Source: Chiloscyllium plagiosum (Eukaryota). Taken from it: DNA of 64,000 bases. Position numbers and translations under genes: made by a program. The DNA lies in assembly GCF_004010195.1 (NCBI RefSeq), contig NC_057718.1, forward strand, positions 76,954,079 through 77,018,078, in the 5' to 3' direction. The notes beneath the pieces were generated by a model. The model did no database searches, was not told where the DNA came from, and worked only from the letters and a program-made list of their open reading frames with translations. Below, one piece after another: positions 7,835 through 63,674 of this stretch. Every line of letters begins with the position of its first letter. The first letter of the stretch is position 1.

Positions 7835-8128
7835 GGTTGGCAGTTATCAGATACTAGTGTCTGTGGATGATGGCTGTGTGGGCCAGTGCGCATGAGTCAT
7901 GCCTGAGATGGTGTTGAGGAGAAAGTGAGGTCTGCAGATGCTGGAGATCAGAGCTGAAAATGTGTTGCTGGAACAGCGCAGCAGGTCAGGCAGCATCCAG
8001 GGAACAGGAGAATCGACGTTTCGGGCATAAGTCCTTCTTCAGGAATGAGGAAAGTGTGTCCAGCAGGCTAAGATAAAAGGTAGGGAGGAAGGACTTGAGG
8101 GAGGGGCGTTGGAAATGCGATAGGTTTC

Positions 8129-8389
8129 GGAGGCTGATGGAAGATTCTGGAACAGTTGAGGAATCTGGAGTGTGGGGGTAAGTACATGAAGGTTTTTAGT
8201 ACTTACTGTCTTTAATTTCCGATATGGCTAGGAAGAACTGTTTGTTTGGAGGCCGATGGAAGATTCTGGAACAGTTGAGGAATCCGGAGTGTGGGGGTAA
8301 GTACATGAAAGTTTTTAGTACTTACTGTCTTTAATTTCTGATATGGCTAGGAAGAACTGTTTGTTTCGGAGGCCGATGGAAGATTCTGG
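8129..8389. repeat. Tandem repeat, 119-120 bp unit, ~2.2 copies
   Basis: Unit starting ggaggc(c/t)gatggaagattctgg at 8129, 8248 and 8368. Confidence 0.95.
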
Positions 8390-8470
8390 AAACCTATCGC
8401 ATTTCCAACACCCCTCCCCCAAGTCTCTCCTCCCTACCTTTTATCTTAGCCTGCTGGACACACTTTCCTC

Positions 8471-8506
8471 ATTCCTGAAGAAGGGCTTATGCCCGAAACG
8501 TCGATT
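8471..8506 (+). ncRNA. Minimal type I hammerhead ribozyme motif (PLE family A)
   Basis: CTGAAGA(8475-8481)-A-GGGC ttat GCCC-GAAA-CG-TC; intact core. Confidence 0.8.
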
Positions 8507-9377
8507 CTCCTGTTCCCTGGATGCTGCCTGGCCTGCTGCGCTGTTCCAGCAACACATTTTCAGCTGAGATGGTGTTGGGTGAACAGAAACGTGGGGACTC
8601 TTCACAGCCAATGATGAATTCAAGTCACCAGGTACCTGCTTCAATTTCCATGTCAGTTTCTCATTTGTTCATGGCGGGTGGTAGGATAGGAAGCTGCATG
8701 TTATTGAGACAAGATGGTGATGTTAACATGGTCACTAACAAACAGTAATTCTCCATAATAGGCATCTTGCTCGTCCCTAGCAAGAATCTTACCTTGATGA
8801 GAATGTAGTGAGTTGCTCCCAATGTTGAGATAAACCATGCTGGATACCTTGTGCAATTCTGCTACATGTCTCGCCATCGCCCACATCATTCAGGCCTATG
8901 TAAGTTTCCGCGGCACAGGAACCAGCCGTTCCTCTGAAATCTTTGCTGGACTCAAGCTTTGACTTTACTTTCTCAAATGCATCTATTCAGATTGCATTTT
9001 ATCTGACCATTGTAACCACTCTGATGGTTCTTGAAGACTCATCCTCACACATGCTTCTCGTAATCAGACCATAATGCATTTGGACATGTGGATCTCCTTC
9101 TCTAGATGCTACTACTTCCATTTTTGCGCAATTTTTTCATTTATACTACAGTACAGTAGTTTGACCGCATAGAAAATATTATGATCTGTAGCTTGAATTC
9201 AGCTTCATATTTCATGCGTTTTGCTAGAGGACCCATTTCTCTTCTTGGCTAGCCATGAGCAGCCCGTGTGCCGTAAGCTCCTGCGTATCATTTATTTATC
9301 TGACCCATATCATCCATAATCTCATCCTAAGTGGAGGAAATGACCTAGTGGTATTATCACTAAACTATTAATCTAGA

Positions 9378-9478
9378 AAGCTGAAAATGTGTTGCTGGAA
9401 AAGCACAGCAGCATCCAAGGAGCAGGAGAATTGACGTTTCGGGCATGAGCCCTTCTTCAGGAATGAGGAAAGTGTGAA
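9378..9478 (-). mobile_element. PLE family A 3' repeat fragment with intact hammerhead core (9433-9460)
   Basis: Reverse complement reads CTGAAGA-A-GGGC tcat GCCC-GAAA-CGTC. Confidence 0.85.
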
Positions 9479-9544
9479 CCACTGATATATCAGCCAGAAG
9501 CTTGAGTAATTGAGTATACTATAGTATGAAAACAAATAAAGGCG

Positions 9545-9645
9545 GAAACAGAAACAGAAGTTGCTGGAAGAGCTCAGCAGGTCCAACGGCATCTGTGGAG
9601 AGAGATCAGAATTGACATTTCGGGTCCAGTGACCCTTCCTCACAT
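9545..9645 (-). mobile_element. PLE family C 3' repeat fragment
   Basis: Reverse complement reads tgaggaa-GGGTC actg GACCC-GAAA-tgtc; related to 25168-25265 and 62063-62160. Confidence 0.7.
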
Positions 9646-9905
9646 TGGAGTTTTTGAAGACTCATTCTGATACGTGATTCTCATAAACAGACCGTTATTA
9701 ACATGATGCATTTGGACAATTATATTAATTGTGAGCCTCTTACATTTGCGCCAAATCTGCACTTGCCATTGTGTTACTGGTGCTCCCTTTTGAGGTCAAT
9801 TGGCTTCCTGACAGTTAAGAGTATGTGTGAATGAATACTGATTGAAGTTGAATGTCTGGTGTCTGTATAGGTTCCAAGATGTCTGGGGTTTTGTAGCCCA
9901 AGGGA

Positions 9906-10576: not shown

Positions 10577-10654
10577 AACCACCTGATGAAGAAGCAGCGC
10601 TCCGAAAGCTTGTGCTTCCAAATAAACTTGTTGGACTGGCACCTCCAAATCATG
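10577..10654 (+). mobile_element. PLE family B fold-back, right part, with hammerhead core
   Basis: CAC-CTGATGA(10583-10589)-A-GAAGC agc GCTCC-GAAA-GC-TT-GTG, followed by the TSD copy. Confidence 0.8.
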
Positions 10655-17771: not shown

Positions 17772-17902
17772 GAGGAGAAAGTGAGGTCTGCAGATGCTGG
17801 AGATCAAAGTTGAAACTTTATTGCTGGAACAGCACAGCAGGTCAGGCAGCATCCAGGGAACAGGAGATTCGACGTTTCGGGCACAGGCCCTTCTTCAGGA
17901 AT
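17772..17902 (-). mobile_element. PLE family A 3' repeat with tail and intact hammerhead core (17871-17898)
   Basis: Reverse complement reads CTGAAGA-A-GGGC ctgt GCCC-GAAA-CGTC. Confidence 0.88.
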
Positions 17903-18890
17903 AGAGTAGTTGAGTTATAGGTTTCACCTGAATTGGAAAGGGACCAATATCTTTCTGGAAAGATTTACTATTTTGGGAGCCTGTAAATATAGGGACAGGG
18001 GAAGCGTATTGGGAGCTTCCTAAGTAACAGTGAAAATACAAAGAAGGGTGGAAATGGTTCTGAATCAGAAAAGAGCAAGTTATTTAGAAAAGACAGACAA
18101 GAGCAAGTTCAGAGAATGAGGTAACTGAAGAATCTAACTGCATTTATTTCAATGCAAAAGGTCTTACAGGTAAGACTAATGAACTCAGGACATATATGGG
18201 AACATGGAACTAGGACATTGCAGCTATTATAGAAACTTGGTTGAAGGAAGGATGACTGGCAGCTCAATGTTCCGGGTTTTAGATGTTATAAGAAGGGAAT
18301 AAAAGGAGGCAAGAAGGGAGGGGATGGTGGCATTTTTGATTAAGGAAATCATTACTATTGTAGTAGAGAAGATATTTCTGAGGGATCATTTAGTGAAAAT
18401 ATATGGGTTGAAATTAGAAATAGGAAGGGGTGATCCCCTTGTTGGGATTGTACTATAGGCACCCCCTCCATTAGTCAGAGGGAAATTGAGAAGCAAATAT
18501 GTAAAGAAAAGTCCCAAATATATGTAAGAATAATAAGGTTATAATAGTAGTGGATTTTAATTTTCCAAACATTGACTGGGGTTGCCAACATATTAAAAGT
18601 GTGATAGTGAAGAATTTGTTAAATAGTTGAAGAAATTTTCCTTATCAATATGTAAATGTACCTCCTAAAGAAGGAGCAAAATCTGACTTTCTCTTGGGAA
18701 ATAAGGCAGGGCAAGTGACTGAAGTGTTTGTAGGAGAACGCATTGCGACTAGAGGTCATATTACTATTAGTTTTACAATAGTTATGGAAAAGGATAAGTC
18801 TTCCATAAAAGATAAAATTCTTAAATGGAGAAAGGCAAGTTTTAAGTATATGAACCAAGAACTTTCAAAAGTTGATTAGAATAGAGCTTT

Positions 18891-19021
18891 GAGGAGAAAG
18901 TGAGATCTGCAGATGCTGGAGATCAGAGCTGAAAATGTGTTGCTGGAAAAGCGCAGCAGGTCAGGCAGCATCCCTGGATGCTGCCTGACCTGCTGCGCTT
19001 TTCCAGCAACACATTTTCAGC
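18891..19021. mobile_element. Minimal 131-bp PLE family A fold-back
   Basis: ~36-nt tail, then perfect ~47-bp inverted arms around a 2-nt loop; TSD tagaatagagcttt at 18877-18890 and 19022-19035. Confidence 0.92.
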
Positions 19022-21229
19022 TAGAATAGAGCTTTCACAAGTAAAGGGAGGACTTACATTGTCGGAGGCCTTTAAAGTGTCATAACCAGAGTTCAGAGGC
19101 ATTATGTTCCCATTAGAGTGAAAGGCAAGGCTGGTAGGATTAGGGAGTGATGAATGAATATAAGGATTGAGGTACTAGGCAAGAATAAAAGAGAAATATA
19201 TATTAGCTATGTATGGGATCAAATGAATCTCTTGAAGTGTATAAAGAGTGTATGGGCATGCTTAAGAAGGAAATCAGGAAGGCAAACAGGGGATATGAGA
19301 TAGCCTTGGCAGATAAGGTTAATGATAATCCAAAAAGATTCTCCAAATGCATTAAGAGCAAGAGAGCAACTAGAAAGAGTAGGATGCATTAAAGGTCAAC
19401 AAGGTTGTCTTAGTGTTGAACCTCAGGAGGTGGGAGAGATATTAAAGGAATATATCGCATCTTACTGTTGAGAAAGAAATGAAGGCTAGAGAACTCAGGA
19501 CAATAAATATTAATGTTTTGAAAACTGTTCACATTGTGGAACAGGAAGTGCAAAGGTCTTAGAAAACATAAAGATAGATACATCTCCAGGACCTGGTCAA
19601 GTGTATCCCAGGATGTCGTTGGAAGTTAGAAAAGAAATTATGGGGTCTCTAGCAGAAATATTAGTTTCATCTATAAAAACATGTGAAGTACAGGAGGACT
19701 GGAGGGTGCTTAATGTTGTGCCATTGTTTAAGGAAGATTGTAAGGAGAAGCCTGGAAACTATAGACCTGTGAGTCTGACGTCAGTGGTGGGTAAGTTATT
19801 GAAAGTGATTCTAGAAGTTAGAATTCTAGAATCAGAGAATTCAGAGAGGCAAGGATTGATTAGGGATTATCAGCATGGTTTTGAGCAAGGAAAATTGTGT
19901 CTCACAAACTTGATTGAGTTTTTTGAAGAACTAACTAAAAAGATTGATGAAGGTAGAGCAATAGATGTTGTTTGGTTGGACGTTAGTAAAGTCTTGACAA
20001 TGTTCCGCATGATAGACAAATTAGTAAAGTTTGATTACATGGGATTCAGTGCTACTTGGATACAAAATTGACTTGTTGACTAGACGACAGATGATGGTGG
20101 TGGAGGGTTGTTTTTCAAACTGGAGGCCTGTGACCAGTGGTATTCCACAGGGATCTACTCTTGTTTGTCATTTATATAAATGATTTGGATGAGGAGCATG
20201 GTTTGTAAGTTTGCAGATGAAACCAAAGTTGGTAGTAAAATGGACAGTGAAAAAAAATCTAAGATTATAAAGAGGTATTGATCAATTAGGTCAATGGGCT
20301 GAGGAGTAGCAGATGTAGTTTAATTTCGATAAATGTGAGGTATTGCATTTTGGTAATGTAAACAAGGACAATCAATGGTAGGGCCCTGGGTAGGTTTGTA
20401 GAAAGGGAAGCTCAGGTGCATCATAGGTATACAGAGTGGTTAAGAAAGCATTAACATGCATGCTACATTGTTTGGACCTTTGAGTATCGGAGTTGGGATG
20501 CTATATTGAAATTGTACAGGACATTGGTGAGGTCTCTTCTGGAGTACTGTGTGCATTCCGGATACTCTGTTATAAGCAGGATATCATTAAATTAGAGAGA
20601 GTTCAGATAACACTTACAAGGATGTTTTGGGAATGGAGGGTTTGAGATATAAAAATAGACTGGAAAAGATGCAACATTTTTCACCCAAGGGGCAACTCTT
20701 TCACACAGAAGGTGAGTCATATGTGGAATGAACTGCAGAGGAAGTGGTGGATGCAGATACAATTGCAACATTTAAAAGACATTTCAATAAGTTCATGAAT
20801 AGGAAACTCTTAGAGGGATATGGGGCAAGCACAGGCAGGTAGGATAACTTTAGTTTGGGAACATGATCAGTGTGGATTGGTTGGACCAAAGAGTCTGCTT
20901 TCAAGTTGTATGACTCTGTTTACAATCAGGATATATAGACAAGAAAAGCACACTGCAGATTAATCAAAATAGATGCCTATGGAATTAGGCATTGGTTGTT
21001 TGTTAACCAAGGTTTGAGTTTTATTCTTTCAAACATTATTTTGTCTATCTGGTCTGGTTTGGTTCCAGCCTCCTCCAAACTGTAAATCTGCTGCTTGCCT
21101 GAACTCATTTAACTTTTCTGCCAGGTTCAAGGGTGTGTGTTCATGACAAGCAGTAACAGAACAACAAACGTAACTGTAACTCAGCAAAGCTCAGGATAGT
21201 GAGTCTGTGATATGAGAAGCAGCTTTAAT

Positions 21230-25167: not shown

Positions 25168-25265
25168 GTTCTGAGGAAAGATCACTGGACCTGAAGCACT
25201 AACTCGATTTCTCTCCAGAGGTGCTATCAAAGCTGCTGAGCTTTTCTAGCAATATCTGTTTTTGC
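25168..25265 (+). mobile_element. PLE family C 3' repeat, decayed
   Basis: gtt-CTGAGGA-a-agatcactggacct-GAAG. Confidence 0.6.
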
Positions 25266-25439
25266 TTGTGTTTGAAATGTTTGAATGTTTGCATTCAAAG
25301 GAATCTGGGTGTTTTAAACATGAAGCAAAAAGTTAACATCAAAGAGTTTTGAAAGCTCATGGTATGTTAATTTTTGTTACAATGGGTTAGAATAAAGAAG
25401 TGTCAATGCCTTACAACAATCGTACAGAGGCCACACCTC

Positions 25440-26190
25440 CCTCCCAAACACACACACACAGACACAGACAGTATCTCTCAAACACACGCACTCTCTCAGG
25501 TGTATAGACTCCCTCAGACGCACACACAATCTCCCAAACACAAACACATGCTGTCTCTCTCTTTCTCTGTCTCTCTCTCTCACGCACACACACTCTCTCT
25601 CCCTCTATATCTCTCTCTCTCTCTCTCTCTCTCTCTCCCCCCCCCACCCCACACCTTCACATGTATATACAGATGCACGCACATATAAATCTGTGGGGTG
25701 AATTTGCATTTGCAGATTTATATTTGCAGATACATTCTGTTTTGCTCAAAAAGCACACAAAGACAATCCATTGAAGTGGTGTTTATAAACTTCTCCTTTG
25801 GAAGTAAAAATCAGTCAGACTCCAAACAATTTCTCATGCCTAAAATACATTTTTAGATTGGAGGTGTCACCTCCTTTATACTGAGAACACCTTAAGTTGT
25901 CTCAGGACAGTGACTTGAAACAAATTCTGGGCTTTGCATATTAATTAATTGAAACCTGCACTCCATTCTAACTGATTAAAGATTTAAGAGCCATCTTATC
26001 TGTGTTCAATTTGTTTGCATGAGTTGTATGACATTTTGATCTTTTCATATATATTCTGTGTCTTCCTCTTTCACTAACACCCGATGACAGAGCAATGCTC
26101 CAAAAGCTATGTTTTCAAATAAATCTGAAGGACCAATAACCTGGTGTCTTGTGATTTTTGACCTTGTCCAACACCGGCACCTTCACATTA
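25440..26190 (+). mobile_element. PLE family B 3' region with CA/CT microsatellite-rich 5' part
   Basis: Ends ccaacaccggcacc like the other family B tails; decayed hammerhead ccgatgacagagcaatgctccaaaagcta at ~26081. Confidence 0.65.
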
Positions 26191-26545: not shown

Positions 26546-27731
26546 TATAAACATAGAGAGCTGGTAATCAGTGAAGTGATTGGTTAACTGAAATAAAGCT
26601 CCCACTTAAACTGTGTATTTGGACACTGTGCAAAATCATATGTCTTCTAGGGTGTAACACGTGAACCTTTGTGTAAGAAAATATGAAATCAAGCCCCGTG
26701 AGAAGACAATAGATCAGTTGGCCAGATACATGTTGAAAGAGGTAGTTTTAAGGATAACAGTGAGATAGACAGGTGGAGAAGGGTGGGAAGGAATTCTAAC
26801 TGCAAGAGTGGATCTATCAACATTGGATTAGCTCAAGAGGCCAGAAATGGATGAGTGCAAAATAGTTGTGAAGCTGGAGAATGTTACAGGAAATAAAGAA
26901 GGAAGAAAATTTAAAAATCAAAACATTGTTTGATTGAGAACCATATATTGGGAATGAAGGGATATGGGAATAGAATAGAAAGATGGAGTGGAAGAAGATC
27001 ACTCGTGATCTTGTTGAATGGAGGACTTGACTTGAATAGACAAATGGCCTACTCCTGCTCTTACTTCTTATGGTTTTCTATAAACAATCATTTTGCTTAT
27101 ATTTCCCAACGTTTCATTTTCTTCTTAAGAAAATGCCTCACCATATAGCTTAGATGCTGGTTGTGATTACTTTCTTTCTACGTGACCACAGCTTAATTTA
27201 ATAATCCGCTTTGAACATGCATCAAGCCTTGTTTTGTTAAGTTTGGCCTATTCCACTTCAGTATCTTCTCCAAATTAGTTAATTTTGCAGTTACTTTCAG
27301 AATCTGGGTCATTTGCATAAACAGGAAACAACAGAGATATCAACACAGTGAAACTCCACTCAATTTTGGCTACTCCACCCAGTGTGACAAAATACCATCA
27401 CTGCAATTCCCTGTTTCAGGTGCGTAGTCAAATTTATGTCTGCTCCATTCTTCAACACTGGATCTTCATGATTTTTAGCAGTGTAAAAATGACAAAGGAC
27501 ACAAAGCTCTTCAATCGCTTTGAGGGGAACATTTTAGCCAGTGTGTGACAAGCCAAACAAGAGGGATTGGTGGGGGTGGAGTCAATTCTAGATTTTCTTT
27601 TAAGGGATTGAAGCATATTTGTGGGAGAAAACATTTGTGTCAATGATCTCAATTCAAGGCAAAAAAGAAAAGTTAATGAGAGCTACCATGAACTTAAACT
27701 ACAGAAAACCTAGTAGATTACAATGAAATTA

Positions 27732-27899: not shown

Positions 27900-28879
27900 A
27901 CGAAATTAAAGTCAATGAAAGGAAAGCAAGGGGAGATGATGAAAAAGTACTCACACGTCAGACAAAGAAAATGTAAACAGTAAATGATAATTAAGGAAAG
28001 AGTAGGACCTATTAGGAGGTAGGCAAAAGTGAGGACTACAGATGCTGGAAACCAGAGTCTAGATTAGAGTGGTGCTGGAAAAGCACAGCAAGTCAGGCAG
28101 CATCCAAGGAGCAGGAAAATCGATGTTTCGGGCAAAAGCCCTTCATCAGTAATGGAGGCAGGGAGCCTCCAGGGTGGAGAGATAAATGGGGGGTGGAGGG
28201 GGTGGGTCTAGGGAGAAGGTAGCAAAGAGTAGAATAGGTGAATGAGGGTGGAGCTGGAGTTGATAGGGAGGAAACTGTTGAAGTCTACATTGATGCCCTG
28301 GGGTTGAAGTGTTCCGAGGCGGAAGATGAGGTATTTGACTTCCAGGTGTCAGGTAGTGAGGAGACCCAGGACCTCTATGTCGTCGGCAGAGTGGGAGGGG
28401 GAGTTGAAATGTTGGACCACGGGGCGGTGGGGTTGATTGGTGCGGGTGTCCCGGAGATGTTCCTTAAAACGCTCTGCGAGGAGGAGTCTGGTCTCCCCAA
28501 TGTAGAGGAAACTGCATCAGGAGCAATGGATACAATAAATGACATTGGTGGATGTGCAGGTGAAACTTTGATGGATATGAAAGGCTCCTTTGGGGCCTTG
28601 GATGGAGGTGAGGGAGGAGGTGTGTGAGCAGGTTTTGCAATTCCTATGGTGGCAGGGGAACGTGTCAGGATGGGTGGATGGGTTTTTGGGGGGTATGGAC
28701 CTGACCAGGTAGTCAAAGAGGGGATGGTCTTTGCAGAATGCAGAAAGGAGTGGTGAAATATATCTCTGGTGGTGGGGACCGTTTGGAGGTGGCGGAAATG
28801 TCAGCGGATGATGCGGTTTATGTGAAAGTTGGTAGGGTGGAAGGGTAGGACCAGGGGGGTTCTGTCCTTGTACACATTC

Positions 28880-29509
28880 GAGAACCAGCCACACCCTCCA
28901 CCTCCTCCAAGGCTTCCGTTTCCCCGGCCCCCAACACCTCATCTTCACCATGGACATCTAGTCCCTCTACACCTCCATCCGCCATGACCAGGGCCTGCAA
29001 GACCTCTGTTTCGTCCTCTCCTGACATTTCCAACAGTACCCTTCCACCGACACTCTCATTCGTTTGGTTGAACTGGTCCTCACCCTTATCAATTTCACCT
29101 TCAAATCCTCCCACTTCCTCCAGACCAAAGGGGTAGTCATGGGCATCCGTATGGGCCCCAGCTATGCCTGTCTCTTTGTCGGCTACGTAGAACAATCCAG
29201 CTTCCTTAGTTACACCGGCACCACTCCCCACCTCTTCCTCCGCTACATTGATGACTGCATCGATGCCACCACGTGCTCCCGCGAGGAGGTTGAGCAGTTC
29301 ATCAACTTCACCAACACATTCCACCCTGACATTAAATTCACCTGGACTATCTCTGACACCTCCCTCCCCCTCCTGGACCTCTCCATCTCCATTAATGATG
29401 ACCGACTTTGACACTGACATTTTTTACAAACCCAACAACTCCCACACCTACCTGGATTACACCTCTTCCCACCCTACCTCCTGCAAAAATGCTATCCCGT
29501 ATTCCCAAT
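28880..29509 (+). pseudogene. PLE reverse transcriptase (disrupted)
   Basis: ORF 29064-29411 with RYIDD; in-frame stops upstream and a frameshift near 29405. Confidence 0.88.
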
Positions 29510-30095
29510 NNNNNNNNNNNNNNNNNNNNNNNNNNNNNNNNNNNNNNNNNNNNNNNNNNNNNNNNNNNNNNNNNNNNNNNNNNNNNNNNNNNNNNNNNNN
29601 NNNNNNNNNNNNNNNNNNNNNNNNNNNNNNNNNNNNNNNNNNNNNNNNNNNNNNNNNNNNNNNNNNNNNNNNNNNNNNNNNNNNNNNNNNNNNNNNNNNN
29701 NNNNNNNNNNNNNNNNNNNNNNNNNNNNNNNNNNNNNNNNNNNNNNNNNNNNNNNNNNNNNNNNNNNNNNNNNNNNNNNNNNNNNNNNNNNNNNNNNNNN
29801 NNNNNNNNNNNNNNNNNNNNNNNNNNNNNNNNNNNNNNNNNNNNNNNNNNNNNNNNNNNNNNNNNNNNNNNNNNNNNNNNNNNNNNNNNNNNNNNNNNNN
29901 NNNNNNNNNNNNNNNNNNNNNNNNNNNNNNNNNNNNNNNNNNNNNNNNNNNNNNNNNNNNNNNNNNNNNNNNNNNNNNNNNNNNNNNNNNNNNNNNNNNN
30001 NNNNNNNNNNNNNNNNNNNNNNNNNNNNNNNNNNNNNNNNNNNNNNNNNNNNNNNNNNNNNNNNNNNNNNNNNNNNNNNNNNNNNNNNNNNNNNN
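29510..30095. other. Assembly gap (586 N)
   Basis: Direct reading. Confidence 1.
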
Positions 30096-30370
30096 CATGA
30101 CCTGTCCTACCTGCCAATCTCCCTTCCCACCTATCTGCTCCACCCTCCTCTCTGACCTATCATCTCCATCCCCACGCCCATTCACCTATTGTACTCTTTG
30201 CTACCTTCTCCCCAGCTCTCCCCCCATTTATCTCTCCACCCTGGAGTCTCCCTGCCTCCATTCCTGATGAAGGGCTTTTGCCTGAAACATCGATTTTCTT
30301 GCTCCTCGGATGCTGCCTGACCTGCTGTGCTTTTCCAGCACCACTCTAATCTAGACCCTATTAGGAGGTA

Positions 30371-31015: not shown

Positions 31016-31985
31016 CATTTAGATTTAGATTTAGATTTAAATTTAGATTTAGGTTTGATTATCACTGGTACTCAGTATGGGGTACAAGAGTACAGTGGAG
31101 ATAGTGAGGACTGCAGTCTGGAAAAGACAGTGTCGATAAAGTGTGGTGCTGGAAAAAGTACAGCAAGTCAGGCAGCATCTGAGGAGCAAGAGAGTCAATG
31201 TTTTGGACTTGACCCCTCATCAGGACTGAAAAGTGTGCAATGTCACCATACACGGTACCATCTTAGGTACAAGCTACCTAAATACAAAATCTTAGTTGCA
31301 GAAGTAGATAAATAAATAAATTTAAAAAGTTCAGCACTGCCATCTTTTTAGTATAAAAGTAGAAAAGTATAGAAATAAAGTTACAAAGTCAAACATTACA
31401 GTCTTTTCTTAAGTTATGGGCCTGCAGATGCTCCAAGCTTGGCTTTCCCCTAGAAGATTCACTCTCTCTTGTGCTGGGCATCCTTTTACCTGCATTGGAC
31501 TAAGCCCCACCCATGCTCATCAGCTGCCTTTGCCACTGACCACCATTGCTGACCTTCATTGGACACACCAGGCTTTGCTCCTGCTGTCATCCTTCGTGAT
31601 TGACTGTTGCTGCTACCAGCTTTCACCACTGCTGCCTCATCGTTGACGGGCTTGCACCAGGCCCCAGGTGCAATCATGCTTTGTTGCCAGGTTAGCGCCT
31701 TGCTGCAGAGTCATGCTCTGGCCATCCATGAAGCTGAGATACCCCTGACTGCCAGAGTTCTGCCCGAGCACACCAGCTGCCTCATGGCCGGTTACTAAGG
31801 TTCCCCAGCCACTGCCGTCGCTGCTGCTGCATCCACAACCGAGCTCCCTTCAGAAGGTAAGTAGGGAATGAAAAAAAACTGGAAGAACTAAAAGAAAAAA
31901 GCGAGAAAAGAGGAAAGAAGAAGAAAGACAAGCGGCCGGAGTGGACGTGTTCCGGTCAGGCGCTCTACTCTGCCGCCATCTTGCT
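31016..31985 (-). mobile_element. Non-autonomous retroelement with (TCTAAA)n tail; contains a PLE family A fragment at ~31098-31228
   Basis: Minus strand starts caagatggcggcag (YY1-like motif) and ends in a hexamer tail with a 3' motif resembling the Rex1 element end at 43420-43468. Confidence 0.5.
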
Positions 31986-32860
31986 TGCGCAGAAATATGA
32001 CCATAAGAAGATACAATTAAGGTGTCTGCTCCACCATTTAATAACATCATGGCTGATTTGGTAACAATCTCAAATCCACATTCCAACCTATCCTGACGCA
32101 TTTTTACCACCTTGCTTTTACAATGATCTATGTCTTGAAAATATTCAAAAACTCAGAGACAGGTCTGAGTGATGTGGGCTTTGGTGAGATGTGTGGCAGA
32201 ATTAGGGAACTAGGCTGGTGAAGCGCATCTCAATGTTGAGCCGTTTTGACTTTACCTTTAATACTTTTCTCAAGTGGTGTGACAAGATTCTTGATAGACA
32301 GCAGTGAGATGCCAATTGATGGGGATTAACGCTTGTTAAACACTTTGTTAAAGCCATAACTCACCTCATTAAAATTTAGCCCCTCATTTTACCAAACTCA
32401 GTAAACAAGCTTGACATTGGGAAAACTCAGCAAAAAAAACTAAAGCAAGCATTTAACAGAATCAACTCATCGCTTGCTCCAAATAACATCAATGTTGAAA
32501 AATAGGCTGCAACATGTCAGGGCATGACTCATAGACACCAGACACATACACACGCACACATCATATGCTCAGACATGGGCATCTGACATGTGCCAGTACT
32601 ACACTTTTGGCTGCATTGGCAACTATCATTGTCATGCTGCTGCAGTACTCTGACCACTCAGGAGCACACACTCAGCTCATAGACTGGACTCTTTGCTTGC
32701 TGTCATTGGGCTCACTCAATTTGACCCTACCTAAATTTTCACAGCATCACTGCCTTGCTTTTGAGCTCTCCGTCCCTCAGCCAAAGATACCAAGCTCATA
32801 GTATTGCCATCTTGCCGCACTGTTTGGTGCAGACATAAAGCTAGGATGCTTGCCATAATT

Positions 32861-33085
32861 AGAGTGATGCTGGAAGGGCACAGCAGGTCAGGTAGCATCC
32901 GAGGAGCAGGGAAATTGACGTTTTGGGCAGCAGCCCTTCATTTGGAATTCTGGATTCCTGATGAAGGGCTCGTGCCCGAAATGTCCATTTTCCTGCTCCT
33001 CGGATGCTGCCTGACCTGCTGTGCTCTTCCAGCACTACTCTAATCTTGACTCTAATCTCCAGCATCTGCAGTCCTCACTTTCGCC
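32861..33085. mobile_element. PLE family A fold-back
   Basis: Inverted arms with ~40-nt tail on the right; hammerhead core at 32958; TSD tgcttgccataatt at 32847-32860 and 33086-33099. Confidence 0.92.
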
Positions 33086-33229
33086 TGCTTGCCATAATTG
33101 TCAGCAGGCCTCAGTCAAGTGAAGGTGGGATAGCCTTTGGTCAGGGGATCCCAGCACAGTAAGTTGAGGGCAGTCTCTGATACCGTCCAGGTCTAGCTCA
33201 GGGTGGGCAAATTCAGGATCCTCTCCTCT

Positions 33230-33510
33230 TAACATAAGAACATGAAAAGGTAAAAACTAGGAAGCAGGAGTAGGCAACACAGCCCTTCGAGCCTGCTTTG
33301 GCATTTGATACCATCATGGCTGATCTCTCATTCCTGATGAAGGGCTGTGGCCCAAAACATCGATTTTCATGCTCCTCAGATGCTGCCTGACCTGCTGTGC
33401 TTTTCCAGCAACACACTCTCAACTTATCTTGGCTTCAACTCATTTTCCTGCCCACTCCCCATAACCTGTTAACCTATTACTAGATAAAAATCTATCTATC
33501 TGTCTTAACC
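33230..33510 (-). mobile_element. CR1 3' end interrupted by a PLE family A fragment (33329-33422, + strand)
   Basis: aacataagaacat tail; PLE core ctgatga at 33334 with GAAA mutated to AAAA. Confidence 0.75.
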
Positions 33511-45850: not shown

Positions 45851-46227
45851 GCTGCTAAAGTTGACAAAAAACTGAAAGAGCCTGCTCTGTGCCCCTCTAT
45901 GCTCCTACTGGCTTTATGCCAGCAGAGGGGAGACGGACTATATGTGAACATGAGGATGGGCGATCTGGACATGGGGTGCTTTTTGGACACAGGAGCAGAA
46001 TTGACAAGCCTATCCCAGATGTATGAGACCAAACTCCCACTAGACAGGATAGTGAGGACAGCTTGTAGAGCAGGAGCTGGCAGGATTGAAATCAAACGGA
46101 CCAAATCCATAAGCCTTGAATTTGCCCCCGACGAGTTAGTAACTTTTACATGGGTAGGACCTGGAGCATCAGCTGCTCCTCAGGATGGATATCATCACCC
46201 AGCTGAATTCGCCTTTACACTTCGATG
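45851..46227 (+). pseudogene. pro: Retroviral aspartic protease (3'-truncated)
   Basis: LYVNMRMGDLDMGCFLDTGAELTSL. Confidence 0.85.
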
Positions 46228-46343
46228 ATGCTCATTTGGAGAGTGGTGCAGACATGCTGAGTGGAATGGCATCCTTGTGGGTCGTAACAGTTCTGTAATT
46301 TTGTGACTTGTAGGTTTCCTGAGCAGTTAAAGTAAATTGGCAT
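46228..46343 (+). repeat. 116-bp direct repeat of 42225-42340
   Basis: Ungapped alignment by eye, roughly 90% identical. Confidence 0.92.
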
Positions 46344-46998: not shown

Positions 46999-47047
46999 TA
47001 AAAAAAAGTTCAACGTGTAGAATCAATTTGGGTGTAAATAATTTGAA

Positions 47048-47312
47048 CTCAGCACCGCCTTCCTAACCTGCAATCTTCTTCCTGACCTCTCCGCCCCCAC
47101 CCCACTCCGGCCTATCACCCTCACCTTGACCTCCCTCCACCTATCGCAATTCCAACGCCCCTCTTCCAAGTCCCTCCTCCCTACCTTTTATCTTAGCCTG
47201 CTGGACACACTTTCCTCATTCCTAAAGAAGGGCTTATGCCTGAAACGTCGATTCTCCTGTTCCTTGGATGCTGCCTGACCTGCTGCGCTTTTCCAGCAAC
47301 ACGTTTTCAGCT
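47048..47312 (+). mobile_element. PLE family A 3' repeat, tail-less
   Basis: Matches 8389-8565; hammerhead core mutated (ctaaaga). Confidence 0.88.
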
Positions 47313-47945
47313 GTAAATAAGAAATAACAAGGAAAGTAGTGATTTATACGCCTCCTGTTAGTAGTTGCACTATTGGACAGAATATAAATCAAGAGATAAT
47401 GAAGCCTCGTAAGCAATGTACTTGAATAATCATTGGAGATTTTTTAACCTTCATTTAGGTTAGATGAATTAAGTTGGCAAAAGTAGTCTGGAGGATAAGT
47501 TCATGAGTCATATTTGAGACCATTTCTTAAAACAATATGTTACGGATTTAACTTGAGAGCAGGTTGTTTTAATTCTGATAGTATGTAATAAGACAGATTT
47601 AATCAATTACTTCATTATAAATGGTTCTCTAGATAAGAGTGTTCATAACACATAAGTATCTATGAATAGGATGCTTGATCCATGGCTAACTAATGAATTT
47701 AAGGATGGCATCAAATTAAAAGAACATTCTACAGTACTGAAAAGATTACTGGCTGGTTAGAAGATTTAAAAAAATTAGAAACCAGCAAAGTACAACAAAA
47801 AGAAAGGGAAATTGGAGCATGAGAGAACATTACCAAGAAATATAAAAACAGACAGAAAAAACTTTGAGAGGAAAAGAATAGGGAAAGTTGCCATGGGTCT
47901 CTTAGAGAGGTGAGACCACGGAATTAATAATGGAAATCAAAGAAA

Positions 47946-48362: not shown

Positions 48363-51300
48363 ACAGCAGATCAGGCAAGATAGTCGATGTTTTGGGCACA
48401 GGCCCTTCATCAGGAATGTGGGTGTAGAAGGGAGCTGAAAGATAAATAGGAGGATGGGGAGGGACTGGGGGGGGGGAAGTTAGTTGGGAAGCCCAAAGGT
48501 GGATACAGGTGGGGGCTGCTTTTGATAGGTCAGTGGGGAGGTTGGAGCGGATAGGTGGGAAGGAAGATGGACAGGTTGGACAGGTTAAGAGGGTGGTGTC
48601 GATTTAGAGAATTGGATCAGGGATGAGGTGGCGGGAGGGGAAATTTGGAAACCGGTGAAGTTAGTGCTATGTGGTTGCAGGGTCTCATGGCAGAGATAAG
48701 GCCTTCTTCCTCCAGTCATTGGATGGCTTAGATTTGGCGGTGGAGGAAGCCCAGAACTTACATGTCCTTGGTGGAGTGGGAGGGGGAGTTGAAGTGGTCA
48801 GCCACATGCTGGTGGGTTTTGGGTGCTTGTGCCCCAGAGATGTTCCCTGAAACACTCCGTGAATTGGCGTTCTGTCTCCCCGATGTAGAGGAGACCACAT
48901 TGAGAGCAACAGACTCAGTAGATAAGGTGAGTGATTGAGAAGGAAAATTTCTGCTGGATGTGAAAAGATCCTTTGGGGCCTTGGACAGAGGTGAGGGTGG
49001 AGGTGTGGGCACAGGTTTTACTTCTCTTGCAGCGGCAACGGAAGGTGCTGGGAGTGGAGGGTGGATTGAGGGGGCTTGGACTTAACGAGGGAGTCACAGA
49101 GGGAATGACCTCTGTGGAATGCAGGTCAGGGGTTGGGGGAGGGAAATACGTCTCTGGTGGTGGGGTCTGATTGTTGGTGGCGGAAATGGCAGAAGCCAAG
49201 TGTGCTTTATCTGGATCTTAGTGGGGTGGAAGATGAGGACCACGGGTGTTCTAACCTTGTTTCAGTTGGAGGGATGGGGTTCAAGGGCGGAGGTGTAGGA
49301 AGTGGAGGAATTAAGTTGGAGGGCATTGTTGATTACTTGGGAGAGGAAATTGTGATCCTAGAAATAGGAGGCCATCTGGGATGTTCTAGAGTGGAATTGC
49401 ACCCCCTGCGAGCAGATTTGGTGTAGACAGAAGAATTGGGAGTACGGGAGGGGAGCTGTAGTCCAGGTAGCTGTGGGAGTTGGTGGCTTTGAAGTAGATG
49501 TCCGAGTTGAGTCGGTCGCCAGAGACTGAGATGGAGAGGTCCAAGAAAGGGAGGGAGGTATCCAAGATGGTCCAGGTGAACTTAAGGTCAGGGTGGGAGG
49601 TGTTAGTGAAGTTGATGAACTATTCAACCTCCTCATGAGAGCATGAGGTGGCACAAATATGATCATCAATGTAACGGAGGAAGAGGTGGGGGATGAACAT
49701 AGAACATAGGACATAGAACATAGAACATCATAACACAGCACAGGCCCTTTGGCCCTTGATGATGTGCCAACCTTTTTATCCTACTTTAAGATCAAACTAA
49801 CCTATATACCCTTCATTTTACTATCATCCATGTGCTGCTTAAAAGTCCCTAATGTACCTGATTCTACTAGTACCGCTGGTAGTGCATTGCATGCGCCCAC
49901 CATTCTTTGTGTAAAGAGCTGACCTCTGACATTCTCCCAAACGTTCCTCTAATCACCTTAAAATTATGCTGCCTTGTTATAGACATTTCTGCTGGGAAGA
50001 AGTCTCTGGCTATTCACTCTACCTATGCCTGTCATCACCTTGTACACCTCTATCAAGTCACCTCTTATCCTTCTTCTCTCCAATGAGAAAAGCCCTAGCT
50101 CCCTCAATCTTTCTTCATAAGACATGTCCACCATAAGATGGTGCCTGTGTAAATGTGGACGATGGACTGTTCCTTGTATCCTATGAAGAGACAAACATAG
50201 CTGGGCCCATGCGGGTGCCCATGGCTACCCCTCTGGTCTGACGGAGGTAGGAGGATTGGAAGGAGAAGATATCAAGGGTGAGGACCAGTTCAACATTTGA
50301 ATGTGTATCAGTGGAGAGAAAATGTTGGGTTGGCTTGAGAGGAAGAAATGAAGGGCTTGGAGTCCTTTGACATAGTGCATGGACATGTATAGGGACTGGA
50401 TGTCCATGGTTAAGATGAGGCATTGGGGGTGGGGGAAATGGAAGTCATGGAGGAGATGGAGGGTGGGGTAGTGTCGCAAATGTATGTGGGGAGATCCTGG
50501 ACCAAGGAGGAAAGGACAGTGTTGAGAAATGAGGAGATATGTTTGGTAAGACAGGAGTAGCAGAGACAATGGTCAACCAGGGCAGTCAGGTTTGAGGATT
50601 TTGAGTAAGAGGAAAACCAGGCGGTGTGGGGTTGCAAACTATGAGGTTGGAGACTGTGGATGGGAGATCCCCTGAGGTGATGTGGTTGTGGATGGTCTGG
50701 GACATGATCGTTTGGTGATGGGAGGTGAGGTCATGGTTGAGGGGTGGTAGGAGAAGGTGTCGGTGAGTTGGTGCCTTCCTTCAGTGATGTAGAGTTTGGT
50801 GCACCAAACTACTACTGCACCCCTCTGTCCGCTGGCTGAATGGTAAGGTTGGGGTTGGACCAGAGGGAGTGGCTGAGGAGTGGAATGGGTGTGCGGTTTG
50901 TGAAGGTGAGAGGTTGGAGTGGGTGAGAGGGGTGGACAGGTTGAGGGAGTCAATGTCACAGCAGCAGTTGAAGGTAAAGAGTTTGGGGGAGATAAGAGAC
51001 CAGGACAGGGTGTCCAAGAGGATGGAGTATGTTTGAGGTAGGAGAAGAGGTCCTCGGAGGGTGGGTGGGAGTCACAATTGAAAAAGGAGGCATGAAGGTG
51101 GAGGCAGTGGAAGGAAAGCAAAATGTTACAAAGTGTATGGAATTCATTGACCCAAAAGTGCAGAGGGATGAAAGTGGAACTTTTACTGAGGACTGATCAT
51201 TTATCCTCAGTGAGGGATGGTCTGGGGGATGCTAAAAACCAAGCAGGGCTGGGGGTAGGGCCCTGGTGTAGAGCTGGAGGTGGGAGTTGGGGTGGAGACT

Positions 51301-51741
51301 GCCTCTGGTTTGGGGGCAATCATGTGATCATTGGTAACATCACTGGAGGAAGTGACATAAATAGCAGCAGACATAGAAGCAGAAGCGGTGCGTTCGGTAG
51401 CACCCGTGGGGAAAGAAGTGATGTTCTGGGTGGTGTTTGCGGAAATGGTGTCTTCAGTGGCGTTCTCGCTGGCAGCGAGGCAATATGGTCAAACCTGTCC
51501 ATCTTCCTTCACACCTATCTGCTTCACCCATCCCATTAACCTATCACAATCACCCTCCACCTGCACTCACCTATTGCCTTCCCAGCTATCTTCCTCTCAG
51601 CCCCACCCCACCCTCCTATTTATCTTTCAGCCCCCATCCCTCTCCACGTTCCTGATGAAGGGCTTATGCCCAATATGTCGACTCTCCTGCTCCTCAGATG
51701 CTGCCTGACCTGCTGTGGTTTTCCAGTGCCACACTTTTCAA
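48363..51741 (-). mobile_element. Long Penelope-like element (N-terminal region, RT, GIY-YIG, 3' repeat) with an inverted repeat at ~51488-51741
   Basis: Minus frames [60 protein letters not shown]; sense copy of the 3' repeat with core at 51652. Confidence 0.92.
49697..50148 (-). mobile_element. CR1 3' fragment inserted in the PLE RT
   Basis: (gaacata)n tail; [31 protein letters not shown]. Confidence 0.9.
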
Positions 51742-56088: not shown

Positions 56089-56374
56089 TATAGGGACCTC
56101 AATTATCCGAACAAGATGGGTGAGCACTATTTTGTTCGGATAATTGATTATTCGGTTATCTGATTTCCTCTGGGGCTTGGAGTTTTCTGTGAAGTCTGCT
56201 CCAGATTCAGGAGACGAGGCAAAAGCACACTGCATGCAAGACCCTGGCTCCCATCCACACCCACCCTGCACCCCTGCCTCCCCTGACCCAGCCCGCCCCC
56301 ACCCCCCCAACTGCCTCCCCACCACCCCAAACCCGTCTGCTCCCACACCGCCCTCCTGCCTGCCCCCACCCTAG
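56089..56374 (+). mobile_element. Tc1/pogo-like MITE end replacing the CR1 RT
   Basis: TA-flanked ggacctcaattatccgaac start; perfect 16-bp hairpin 56099-56114/56132-56147. Confidence 0.5.
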
Positions 56375-60410: not shown

Positions 60411-60610
60411 AACACCTTTTTAACCATCCTGTCTATGCAAACTTCAAAGAATAGGGACCTGCACCCCTAGGCCCCTTTGTTCTATAACACTACTCAAGGC
60501 CCTACCATTAATTGTATAAGCCCTACCTTGGTTTGTTGTATCAAAATGCAACACCTCACATTTATCCAATTGAATTCCATCTGCCATTTTTCAGCCCATT
60601 GACCTATTTG

Positions 60611-60696
60611 GAAGAAGGGCTCATGCCCGAAATGTCGATTCTCCTGCTCCTTGGATGCTGCCTGACTGCTGCGCTTTTCCAGCAACACATTTTCAG
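60611..60696 (+). mobile_element. 86-bp tail-less PLE family A insertion
   Basis: TSD cattgacctatttg at 60597-60610 and 60697-60710. Confidence 0.9.
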
Positions 60697-60762
60697 CATT
60701 GACCTATTTGATCAAGATCGCTTTGTAATCTTAAAAAACTTTCTTCATTTTTTACTATGCCA

Positions 60763-60928
60763 GGTCTTTTTCAATGTATAATTTCAGTTACATCACACTG
60801 TAAACTTTTGCTATAAATTCTGTGTCTTACAATCTTATACTCCACAACCACCTGATGAAGGAGCAGCACTCCGAAAGCTAGTGCTTCCAATTAAACCTGT
60901 TGGACTATAACCTGGTGTAGTGTGATTT
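60763..60928 (+). mobile_element. PLE family B 3' repeat
   Basis: Degenerate TSD ttttactatgcca/ttttattatgcca. Confidence 0.85.
60849..60883 (+). ncRNA. Minimal type I hammerhead ribozyme motif (PLE family B)
   Basis: CAC-CTGATGA-A-GGAG cagca CTCC-GAAA-GC-TA-GTG; stem I CAC/GTG closes the core. Confidence 0.82.
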
Positions 60929-62062
60929 TTATTATGCCACAAATTTTGTGTTATCTGCAAATTTACTAACTACGCCTTCGATATTCTCATCCAAGTCATT
61001 TGTATAAATAACTCCAAAAGACGACCGAGAACCAAACACTGCTGGTCTCAGACTTCCAGTCTGAAAAGCAATCTTCCACTATTACTCCATGTCTCCTGCC
61101 ATTAAGCCAATTATGTATCCATTTGGCAAGCTCACCCTGAAACCCATGTGAGCTAACTTTACTAATTAATCTGCTATGCGGAACCTTGTCAAAGGTTTTA
61201 CTAGAATCCAAATAAATAATGGCTACTGCACTGCTATCATCAATCTTTTTGATAATTATAATCAAGTTTGTGAGACACGATTTTCCTTCGATTCCCATTG
61301 ACTCCAGTATTGTTTGGACTCCTTGATGCCACACTCAGTCAAATGATGCCTTGACATCAAGACTTGTCACTCTCAACTCATTGCTGGAGTTCAGCTCTTT
61401 TATCGATGTTTGGACCAAGGCTGTAATGTGGCCAGAAGCTAAATGGCTCTGGTGGAACACAAAAGGAGTATCAGCGAACATGTTGATTTGAAGAACTTTT
61501 CTCCTTTAGTATGAAACATGGTTGAATGATATTTCCAATAGTTGGTTATAATAGTTTTATTTTAATATCAATTTAAAAATTCTGGCTCCTAAGTCTGTCC
61601 ATAGTGGACACTGAGTAAATGACTATGGAGAATACACAGGGCTATGGAGGGTGCAAGAGATACATGAAGGAATATGGAAGACTATGAGGAAGAATGGAGG
61701 TGGCAAATATCAGCCTGTGAACCAGATGAGACAGTGACAGTGGGTGAGGGGTGAGGGTTTGACAGCCTGAAATTTATCTTTAAAACACTCAGTAAGTAGA
61801 GGCAGGGGTTTTAGCCTATTTCCCCACCATCCAACCTCCTTCATTGATACCTTAGGTCCTTGGTGGGGCGGACTCCATTCTGCATCCACCTTTCAGGAAT
61901 GAAACACAGCACGTGGAAGTCTTATTGGAAGAACCAGGTCTGCTGGGTCGGGAAATTTCCCAACTTGATCTTCCTGCTTCCCCTATGAAGATCGGGATCA
62001 TAGTGTTTGGTTTCACATCCCAGAAGAGTATTTCATAGCCAAAGAATGAGTCTTTTTAAACG

Positions 62063-62512
62063 TAACAGAAAATTGCTGACGAAACTCAGCAGGTCTAGCA
62101 GCATCTGTGGGGAAAAAGTAGTGTTAACATTTTGAATCTGGTGACTCTTCATCAGAACTGATTGGAGCCCAGAAAAAGTGATAGTTGTGTGACAGATGAG
62201 ATTGAGGATGGTGGGGGAAGAGGTGACTGGATTAGTGAGACAGAGCCCACAGAGAGAGAGGTATGAAAAGGGTAGGCAGATGAAGGGGTCGTGGATAGTA
62301 TGCCAGGACAGAAGAGAAGTTGAATGAATGGTGGTGAGAGGTGAGAGAGGGAGAAAATGAGTTGGCTGTGCTGAAAGCAACCCATGGTCATTAAAAAACA
62401 TGGAAGGATGGAATCAGGCTCTAAAGTCTTTGAACTCAATGTTGAGTCCTAGACTGGAAAATGAGGTGCTGCTTTATGAACTTGCGCTGAGGCTTGCTGG
62501 AACAGTACAGCA
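62063..62512 (-). mobile_element. PLE family C 3' region
   Basis: Reverse complement gtt-CTGATGA-a-gagtc acca gattc-aaaa-tgtt-aac; GIY-YIG terminus remnant near 62430-62510. Confidence 0.75.
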
Positions 62513-62675
62513 AGCTCTACATACCCTTCCTCCAATCCCGTTTAAATTTAAGAAAACTTATTCCTTGGTGATAAAATGTTTTCCTGAGATGTGAAAAGAA
62601 AACACTATGGGCTAGATCTTCATAGGTTGTGAATGTGGATGGGTAAGGGCGTTGCTAATGGTATATGTCTAGACA

Positions 62676-62921
62676 TCTGGATTAGTGGTGCTGGAAAAGC
62701 ACAGCAGTTCAGGCAACATCCAAGGAGCAGTAAAATCGACGTTTCGGGCAAAAGCCCTTCATCAGGAATACAAGCGTTCTTTTCCACCTGTATTCCTGAT
62801 GAAGGGCTTTTGCCCGAAACGTTGATTTTACTGCTCCTCGGATGCTGCCTGAACTGCTGTGCTTTTCCAGCACCACTAATTCAGAATCTAGTTTCCAGCA
62901 TCTGCAGTCATTGTTTTTACC
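62676..62921. mobile_element. PLE family A fold-back with an intact hammerhead core on each strand
   Basis: Cores at 62738-62765 (-) and 62796-62823 (+); tail on the right; TSD tatatgtctagaca at 62662-62675 and 62922-62935. Confidence 0.93.
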
Positions 62922-63674
62922 TATATGTCTAGACAGTTAGCTGGAGATGAATGTGAAGTATATCCCTGAAAATTATAGCTCTAATGTTTTTGGGGAGGTT
63001 GGAGAATGCAGGTATCCAGGAAATTGGTTAGAAAATCAAGAGCTCTTACACAATTCAATGGCAGGATCACATCATACTGTTCTCAACTATTTCCAGCTTA
63101 ATAGCTAACTAAATAGACAGGCTGACTGTCCTAGATACGATAACCAATGTCAGGAGGTCATAGCTATAGACTTTGCGGCACAGATCATCATAATTGGGAG
63201 ACAGCAACAGATTAAAATTTGGAAGAATTGGGAGGGAGGTCATTGTGACAGAAGAGGAGCAGTAATTGGGAATTGCAGGAGTTAGGTTGTTGGCAATATA
63301 TCTTGAAATCTTTCTTTGTTATGCAGATCCTGTTTATTGATCTGAACATTCCTTCAAGATCAGTGCTCAGTTATGTCCATGTGCTTCTTTCAGGAAATCA
63401 CGGCTTGTTTTTTGCACTTGGAGATACATTATCAATTGCCAAGTTACTGCCTGCTTGTTCTACTTGAGAAGAACATTGGTCACCAATTGGGAATTAGAGG
63501 CTGGTGATCATAAGAGGGGACAGAAAGTGGCTGAGATGGTAAACAAAAGGCCAAAGACTGTTTTAACTCAGGTGACAGCCATTTGCTACTTCATTTATCA
63601 GGGCAATGCTTTGATCATTCAGAATGATCTGCCTCATTTTGAAATTAAACAAAGCCTTATTATTAAATCATCGT

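Follow-up and report, generated by a model that had tools for sequence, protein, structure and literature searches.

An exact 14-base target duplication flanks all five intact two-armed copies of a Penelope-like element (PLE) in the 64-kb window of shark DNA examined here (the whole stretch of 64,000 nucleotides) and is mostly absent from one-armed copies. This duplication is the new detail; the fold-back architecture itself is ordinary for the PLE class. The inserts are probably 5'-truncated products of a Neptune-type PLE, arising where both ends of a staggered cut served as primers for target-primed reverse transcription. The PLE insertion cycle is still termed undefined in the literature consulted. 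With 14 insertions of this family (family A) in the 64 kb of the window, or about one per 5 kb, the shark genome is a large natural data set.

Identity of the element

A reverse transcriptase (RT), a CX4CXXC linker, a GIY-YIG nuclease and a minimal hammerhead identify family A as a Neptune-type PLE, which bears out its initial annotation as Penelope-like. An RT fragment is 87% identical to a Chiloscyllium protein. Searches by tblastn with the full-length relatives P0037 and P0071 recover the EN+ PLE order, RT followed by GIY-YIG, on the copy at 48375-51319, and on the 28022 fold-back tblastn places the RT in the right arm and the linker and GIY-YIG in the left. Pfam reports RVT_1 and GIY-YIG on these relatives and a weak GIY-YIG match on the window fragment (E 0.015); the family-A open reading frames (ORFs) within the window are broken. 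A further sequence feature of EN+ PLEs, defined in PMC8557442, can be read in translations of 28022-28880 (-) and 1150-1900 (+). A CX2-5CXXC motif in the RT-nuclease linker is common to Neptune and Nematis and absent from Penelope/Poseidon; as CX4CXXC it is present in the left arm of 28022 and in seven of the eight relatives examined. The vertebrate host favours Neptune over Nematis, which in itself is no phylogenetic placement.

Minimal type I hammerheads have been reported near the 3' end of fish Neptune and Poseidon PLEs (PMC4209133). Family A appears to share this type I core with metazoan PLEs: a pattern scan finds the predicted core near the 3' end of ten arms. Rfam gave no match on family A, the hammerhead falling below the gathering threshold, and no arm in the window starts at the hammerhead cleavage site. 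The 64-kb window contains no full-length tandem copy of the kind in which the direct pLTRs of EN+ PLEs arise from a partial tandem. An inverted 5'-truncated arm, a one-sided tail of 30-40 nt and a target-site duplication (TSD) have already been published for EN+ PLE insertions (PMC3846280, PMC8557442), and family A displays this trait of an inverted 5'-truncated copy with an optional tail. It is like the canonical complex insertions of those two reports in having the inverted copy at the 5' end, a tail at one end and a 3' hammerhead, but many of its copies are just 130-250 bp. It also differs from rotifer PLEs, whose TSD is 8-10 bp or absent, in having 14 bp in every intact two-armed copy.

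Copies in the window

The census took every two-armed family-A copy within the window (Table 1) and left out a match at 9560-9624, which belongs to a different family. It comprises five intact two-armed copies, one older fold-back and eight one-armed copies, three with the tail and five without; none of the eight has a hairpin. The list initially drawn up held only copies bearing a 14-mer. Insert sizes are 647 (7917), 131 (18891), 2335 (28022, including a 586-N assembly gap), 225 (32861), 86 (60611) and 246 (62676), as first described for the fold-backs except 7917, which had been put at ~649. The tail arm of 28022 carries the CX4CXXC linker and GIY-YIG at ~28869-28280, interrupted by stops and frameshifts, and its tail-less arm reaches further at the 5' end. 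The 48375 fold-back pairs a long - arm, with most of the broken ORF, with a 254-nt tail-less + arm. About seven unassigned bases separate the arms of 62676. Further copies were proposed by pattern scan at 10 metagenome loci and three genome-contig loci and were rejected as chance, with only 23-34 nt matched; the same kind of scan of viral contigs gave no family-A match.

Table 1. Family-A insertions in the window and their component parts.
Feature	Position	Strand	Remarks
Old one-armed copy with tail	1196..1898	+	At best an 11-mer with 2 mismatches
Left TSD, 7917 fold-back	7903..7916	+	Exact 14-mer; 1 copy in empty version
Tail-bearing arm, 7917 fold-back	7917..8125	-	Tail 7917-7953 (37 nt); predicted hammerhead core 8042-8018
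Foreign filler between arms, 7917 fold-back	8126..8391	.	119-bp unit x2.2, not family A
Tail-less arm, 7917 fold-back	8392..8563	+	5' end at identical element base to partner arm
Right TSD, 7917 fold-back	8564..8577	+	
One-armed tail-less copy	9380..9476	-	No TSD found
One-armed copy with tail	17773..17903	-	No clear TSD
TSD, 18891 fold-back	18877..18890 (left), 19022..19035 (right)	+	
Tail-bearing arm, 18891 fold-back	18891..18973	-	Tail 18891-18927 (37 nt)
Tail-less arm, 18891 fold-back	18971..19021	+	Extends 5 nt further 5'; arms overlap 3 nt
TSD, 28022 fold-back	28008..28021 (left), 30357..30370 (right)	+	
Tail-bearing arm, 28022 fold-back	28022..28872	-	Tail 28022-28056 (35 nt); 3' part of ORF
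Tail-less arm, 28022 fold-back	28873..30356	+	RT core 28884-29508; N gap 29510-30095
Old one-armed copy with tail	31097..31229	-	No TSD found
TSD, 32861 fold-back	32847..32860 (left), 33086..33099 (right)	+	
Tail-less arm, 32861 fold-back	32861..32951	-	
Tail-bearing arm, 32861 fold-back	32952..33085	+	Tail 33042-33085 (41-44 nt)
One-armed tail-less copy	33327..33424	+	No TSD found
Young one-armed tail-less copy 47042-47311	47033..47320	+	9-bp direct repeat
Older sixth fold-back	48375..51741	.	Left end deleted, TSD not scorable
One-armed tail-less copy 60611-60696	60597..60710	+	14-bp TSD 60597-60610, 60697-60710; within another repeat
TSD, 62676 fold-back	62662..62675 (left), 62922..62935 (right)	+	
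Tail-less arm, 62676 fold-back	62676..62772	-	
Tail-bearing arm, 62676 fold-back	62780..62921	+	Tail 62886-62921 (36 nt)
Old one-armed tail-less copy	63673..63923	-	No TSD found

The 14-bp target-site duplication

Six 14-mers each occur exactly twice on the + strand (7903/8564, 18877/19022, 28008/30357, 32847/33086, 60597/60697 and 62662/62922), confirming the 14-nt direct repeats originally described. At all six sites the match ends at 14, and no longer exact repeat reaches the two outer boundaries. As a null, the left boundary of one insertion was set against the right boundary of another; the longest repeat in 182 such pairings was 8. The 14-mers are duplicated target DNA, in line with the first reading of them, as the position is single at empty versions of three sites. 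For 7917, a contig of run X5 (depth 34.8) joins 7839-7902 to 8564-8770 with a single 14-mer; for 60611, two paralogous sites hold the 14-mer position once; for 18891, the flanks meet with an overlap of ~14 nt on a paralogous repeat near 55856, which is only ~70% identical and was compared by pairwise alignments. For the one-armed copies without a TSD, no informative empty paralogue was found.

As a rule for the whole family, the exact 14-bp TSD proposed at first has to be narrowed. It is present in five of five intact two-armed copies and in one of eight one-armed copies (Fisher p 0.005); among the other one-armed copies, one has 9 bp (47042) and six have no clear TSD. The average age of the one-armed copies is greater, with six of the eight at 80-89% to the nearest arm, so erosion may account for part of this contrast. 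The uniform 14 could also be a selection effect, in which TSD lengths are broad and matching ones were picked. The seven one-armed copies without a 14-mer and the 9-bp case would agree with this, as would the description of PLE TSDs as variable in PMC8557442 and the rotifer values of 8, 9, 10 or none. However, all five intact two-armed copies of the full window census have 14, and these span at least three sequence variants, making such an effect improbable. A fixed 14-nt cut, also part of the initial annotation, is consistent with the six sites and with a weak genome-wide base bias; it is read from the scorable 14-bp sites (n=6, in the window) and not from a measured distribution. In a hand count of plurality bases, G leads at the position 16 bases ahead of the tail junction in six of six contig rows and at 15 ahead in five of six. 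Among the window fold-backs, GG lies just outside the TSD in none of five and G at -16 in two of five, so the contig-row bias is not reproduced locally. A fixed 14-bp PLE TSD was not found in the literature searched, although Repbase entries and subscription papers may already record such a length. A second PLE family has a fold-back with a 12-bp repeat containing one mismatch.

Tails, arms and inversion points

Exactly one arm bears the tail in all five fold-backs (p 0.02-0.03 if the ends chose independently). Tail lengths are 37, 37, 35, 36 and 44 nt for 7917, 18891, 28022, 62676 and 32861, with an ambiguity of 0-3 nt because the TSD edge matches the continuation of the element. The tail of ~35-40 nt on one arm described earlier is thus one-sided throughout and 35-37 nt in four cases, with 32861 falling outside at 41-44. 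Many copies agree on a sharply defined end of the tail: loose ends at 7916/7917/7918 number 233/972/452 in X9 and 257/875/409 in X15. Tail-less ends were not seen among the 24 loose-end rows listed (2917 more are unlisted), nor inversion junctions among the 15 joints listed (1253 more are unlisted). The tail folds back on the upstream unit in five of five arms, with z-scores that spread from +0.15 to -2.46, and for that reason tail folding is not counted as evidence.

The inversion point differs across all five fold-backs, as had been claimed, and so do centres and sizes. Each fold-back arises de novo at its own insertion. The short inverted-repeat shape and the uniform TSD in five copies could suggest MITEs, non-autonomous units that a DNA transposase leaving 14-bp TSDs would spread whole. 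This reading is largely refuted and very improbable: a tail of 35-44 nt sits on one end, sizes run from 131 to 2335 and centres differ, contrary to what defines a MITE or terminal inverted repeat, while arms extend into PLE coding sequence and one-armed copies exist. The asymmetric ends, the coding sequence and the one-armed copies agree with the original view that these MITE-looking fold-backs are retrotransposition products.

A feature that had gone unremarked is the near equality of the arm 5' ends, which lie no more than 10 nt apart in four of six fold-backs (permutation, 4 of 720; the 10-nt threshold was chosen after the data were seen). Near-equal ends point to one shared RNA template and, taken with the single tail in five of five insertions, suggest that both target ends were primed on one RNA. 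Alternatively, two RT subunits could act on two RNA molecules truncated independently, with arm symmetry arising from shared stall sites. Immediately 5' of the hammerhead there is a truncation hot spot, used by seven of 19 arms at 75-77 nt upstream from the anchor; one-armed copies share it, and it is the turning point in two of the four symmetric pairs. The highly unequal arms of 28022 and 48375 would also agree with two RNAs, as would those of 32861, which differ at 13/89 positions and of which one has its nearest neighbour in another insertion. Nevertheless, arm symmetry outside the hot spot is seen in 7917 (153/153) and 18891 (26/31), every one of the five has a single tail, and no arm pair mixes clearly different subfamilies, leaving two RNAs an unlikely source. 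Eight of ten arms have their nearest neighbour in the partner arm.

Self-priming is another proposed source of inverted arms. A hairpin cDNA, proposed to form on an antisense template, would have the tail trimmed off one arm by the nuclease, and the double-stranded product would integrate with a TSD. It was put forward in PMC3846280 from palindromes at inverted junctions, and the tail was ascribed to nuclease resolution in PMC8557442. Near-palindromic centres occur at 18891 and 32861, the 7917 filler has 3-nt inverted ends, and near-equal arms of the same variant would fit as well. In 28022 and 18891, however, each arm contains sequence absent from the other and the tail-less arm is the longer one, an outcome that a single target-primed cDNA snapping back on itself cannot give. 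One-armed copies both with the tail (3/8) and without it (5/8), none a hairpin, also argue against self-priming, as does the in vitro result that the tail matches the spacing of two RT start sites (PMC11167929). Self-priming is therefore rather unlikely.

Proposed priming from both target ends

Priming from both ends of the cut, the favoured reading, can be set out as a series of steps. The nuclease would nick both strands ~14 nt apart. Priming would begin at the distal start from one target end and, probably on the same RNA, at an internal start ~36 nt upstream from the other. Microhomology or filler of 0-3 nt would then link the two cDNA ends head to head. With both ends extended, the full 14-nt stagger would survive. 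With a single end extended, the other would be joined by host repair and the duplication often trimmed or lost. Tailed and tail-less 3' ends are each found on their own as well, which makes both of them primary start sites. A related process is L1 twin priming, where a single RNA is primed from both target ends and an inversion is left inside the TSD. The L1 cDNAs cover different parts of the RNA, whereas in family A the 3' end recurs in each arm and the second start has a set position.

The initial annotation had both ends primed and the cDNAs head to head, and at least two of the five fold-backs do need two priming events. Both strands are cut and extended in vitro by Poseidon PAc of Anolis carolinensis, with two RT starts one tail apart (PMC11167929), so this portion has already been shown for the anole PLE and is not new. 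The same source predicts a PAc dimer and has uncleaved hammerhead RNA serving as template. PAc is of the Poseidon clade, whereas family A has the Neptune/Nematis linker motif, and the available account of PAc gives no stagger, TSD or head-to-head joining model.

If the TSD is fixed in two-armed and eroded in one-armed copies, the order of events is set, with both nicks preceding the end of cDNA synthesis. The 14-nt stagger, if true, is a number that can be tested in the existing in vitro PLE system. A more specific geometry is offered tentatively: a PLE dimer may make a fixed 14-nt staggered cut and place two RT subunits on one RNA at a spacing of ~36 nt, with the leading cDNA displaced by the trailing subunit and the cDNA ends priming each other. 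Such a geometry would explain the tail and the inverted arm, as well as the correlation of arm ends and the fixed two-armed TSD. It would contradict the published position, in which a late second nick makes the PLE TSD variable in length. A strict lead-and-follow model does not predict the arrangement in 62676 and 48375, where the arm without the tail is the shorter of the two.

Direct repeats and empty sites

Each of the six 14-mers proposed in the initial annotation as exact target-site duplications (TSDs) of family A, a Neptune-type Penelope-like element (PLE), occurs twice in the window, at the positions originally given. All six are the longest exact repeats touching both outer ends of their insertions, none exceeding 14 nt; as a null control, mismatched boundary pairings (n=182) gave repeats of at most 8. 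Mismatches between arms (0 to 15 per fold-back, see table) mark the fold-backs as aged insertions rather than artefacts of the reads.

The 14-mers are duplicated target DNA. At 60611 the 14-mer position is single in two paralogous copies of the surrounding host repeat, and at 18891 the flanks join, overlapping by ~14, on a paralogue of only ~70% identity near 55856. At 7917, one contig (depth 34.8, 270 letters) from X5, a sequencing run with the same species label as the window, spans 8564-8770, and its other 64 letters fit 7839-7902, a join inferred because depth and end distances agree between two tables. With 8 of 206 letters differing from the window, this contig could represent either an allele or a paralogue. 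Likewise, a piece of a contig from a further source, organism B, stops at 7903, its other half being absent among the matches listed. Positions 8560-9640 exist in X5 in two versions: one matches the window almost exactly, and the other is ~4% different with deeper coverage, pointing to either a haplotype that has diverged or a duplication of the region.

Coordinates and anatomy of family A and related elements. Tail lengths are ambiguous by 0-3 nt where bases at the edge of the TSD agree with the continuing element sequence; mismatches are between arms, over aligned positions.
Feature	Position (strand)	TSD copies	Size (nt)	Tail (nt)	Mismatches	Remark
Two-armed	7917	7903/8564	647	37	6/174	
Two-armed	18891	18877/19022	131	37	0/46	
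Two-armed	28022	28008/30357	2335	35	15/204	
Two-armed	32861	32847/33086	225	44	13/89	
Two-armed	62676	62662/62922	246	36	4/97	
One-armed	60611	60597/60697	86			
Older sixth fold-back	48375-51741					most of broken ORF; other sequence intrudes at ~49691-50140; left end deleted
RT	28884-29508 (+)					
Linker and GIY-YIG nuclease	~28869-28280 (-)					
Second hammerhead PLE family, fold-back	27721-27909 with repeats, 27733-27897 without			~36, one-sided		12-bp direct repeat, 1 mismatch
Second-family relatives	7703-7801, 10577-10650, 26079-26182, 60763-60931					
Third related end family	9560-9624, 25170-25267, 62064-62160					hammerhead-like start

TSD length in two-armed and one-armed copies

BLAST recovers 14 family-A insertions in the window. 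Eight are one-armed and six two-armed, five of the latter intact and one with an end lost by deletion. All five intact two-armed copies have a TSD of 14, against only one of the eight one-armed copies (Fisher p 0.005), so the claim of an exact 14-bp TSD stands for the two-armed copies only. One-armed copy 47042 has a TSD of 9, and the other six show no exact repeat above 6, with 11-mers carrying two mismatches at 1196 and 17773. Age confounds this contrast: of the eight one-armed copies, six show just 80-89% identity to their nearest arm, and the two youngest have TSDs of 14 and 9.

The feature is real, and the kind of insertion is already known: PMC3846280 and PMC8557442 describe PLE insertions with an inverted 5'-truncated copy, a tail of 30-40 nt on one side and a TSD. 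The former gives TSDs of 8, 9, 10 bp or none, and the latter terms them variable. A fixed 14-bp PLE TSD was not found in the literature searched, Repbase and key subscription reviews lying outside its scope. Sources drawn on also include PMC9977147, PMC8969392, PMC7599744 and preprint 10.64898/2026.07.22.740005.

Contigs and RNA reads were also compared with 7650-9700 for loose ends, which are sharp at the tail tip (7916/7917/7918: 233/972/452 in run X9, 257/875/409 in X15, 151/419/150 in X21). By hand count among the matches listed, G is the plurality base at -16 in all six contig rows that end at 7917 or 7918, and at -15 in five of them, directly outside the expected 14-nt TSD, with most other flank positions A or T and CT immediately before the tail junction; these rows give plurality bases without frequencies, and insertions are shared between species. 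The matches listed include neither tail-less ends nor inversion points. Nuclease preference and priming microhomology are possible sources of the G and CT. GG lies outside the TSD at none of the window's own five sites, and the G bias is suggestive but does not prove that the cut is fixed.

Identity of the element

Of 228 candidates, 97 are related to the RT fragment; the best (87%) comes from Chiloscyllium punctatum, followed by other sharks and rays. Full-length relatives, used to map the coding pieces, also span most of the older copy (48375-51319). The linker motif is CX4CXXC, and two cysteines separate the motifs of the nuclease; according to PMC8557442, a CX2-5CXXC linker marks Neptune/Nematis and the cysteines mark PLEs generally. 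Every coding piece of family A in the window is broken. A minimal hammerhead core is present in 10 arms, and such cores have been described for PLEs (PMC4209133). The 5' ends of 7 of 19 family-A arms form a hot spot just upstream of this core, not at the cleavage site (an internal deletion affects one of these seven arms, and some boundaries were placed by eye).

Start sites and mechanism

Among one-armed copies, the tail is present in three of eight and absent in five; because either end occurs, tailed and tail-less 3' ends are both primary start sites. This matches an anole PLE whose RT starts at two sites one tail apart, and which cleaves and extends both strands, with a dimer predicted (PMC11167929). 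Self-priming has also been put forward (PMC3846280). The tail-less arm of 28022 carries RT sequence that its tail arm lacks, and that of 18891 is 5 nt longer at its 5' end and overlaps the tail arm by 3 nt, structures that one target-primed cDNA folding back cannot produce. They call for two priming events, unless a free hairpin lost its tail by later cutting. Twin priming in L1 is a known mechanism for comparison. The mechanism proposed initially (a fixed ~14-nt staggered GIY-YIG cut, both ends primed, cDNAs joined head-to-head) is largely right and was partly anticipated in print.

Exactly one tail is found in each of five fold-backs (p 0.02-0.03 if ends chose independently). From a common anchor, arm 5' ends lie at 153/153 nt (7917), 26/31 (18891), 76/77 and 86/77 (two further intact fold-backs), 793/~1461 (28022) and ~2900/234 (48375), the last two arm-length figures being rough. 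They fall within 10 nt of each other in four of six fold-backs (4/720 pairings by permutation), a threshold picked after data inspection, and two of the four symmetric pairs sit on the hot spot. Compared by sequence, 8 of 10 arms are closest to their own partner. The single tails, near-equal ends and partner relatedness suggest that two RT subunits would work on one RNA; both target ends would be shielded through extension. What is left of value is a testable refinement, based on five or six events: a 14-nt stagger preserved in two-armed insertions, together with signs of one RNA as the source of both arms.

Both arms of 7917 terminate at one identical element base beside a filler (8124-8391; a 119-bp unit repeated 2.2 times) found nowhere else in the window. 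High-depth contigs of three runs cover this filler, which points to a repeat with multiple copies that was caught up in the junction.

Related families and other repeats

The second-family fold-back has the same overall shape as family A, and the one-armed copy at 60763 has a repeat of up to 14 with one mismatch, partly shared with the element end. Outside family A, a large inverted repeat occupies 38453-39730 (arms ~450 nt, 88%), of which 38852-39129 also matches 36501-36779, inverted. ORFs at 45325-46228, with a weak Pfam match to gag-polyprotein aspartyl protease (E 0.0015), mark a decayed LTR-type element. Smaller features, also unrelated to family A, are an inverted pair at 61982-62060 and 62547-62626 (80 nt, 76%) and an imperfect 50-nt palindrome at 56099-56147.
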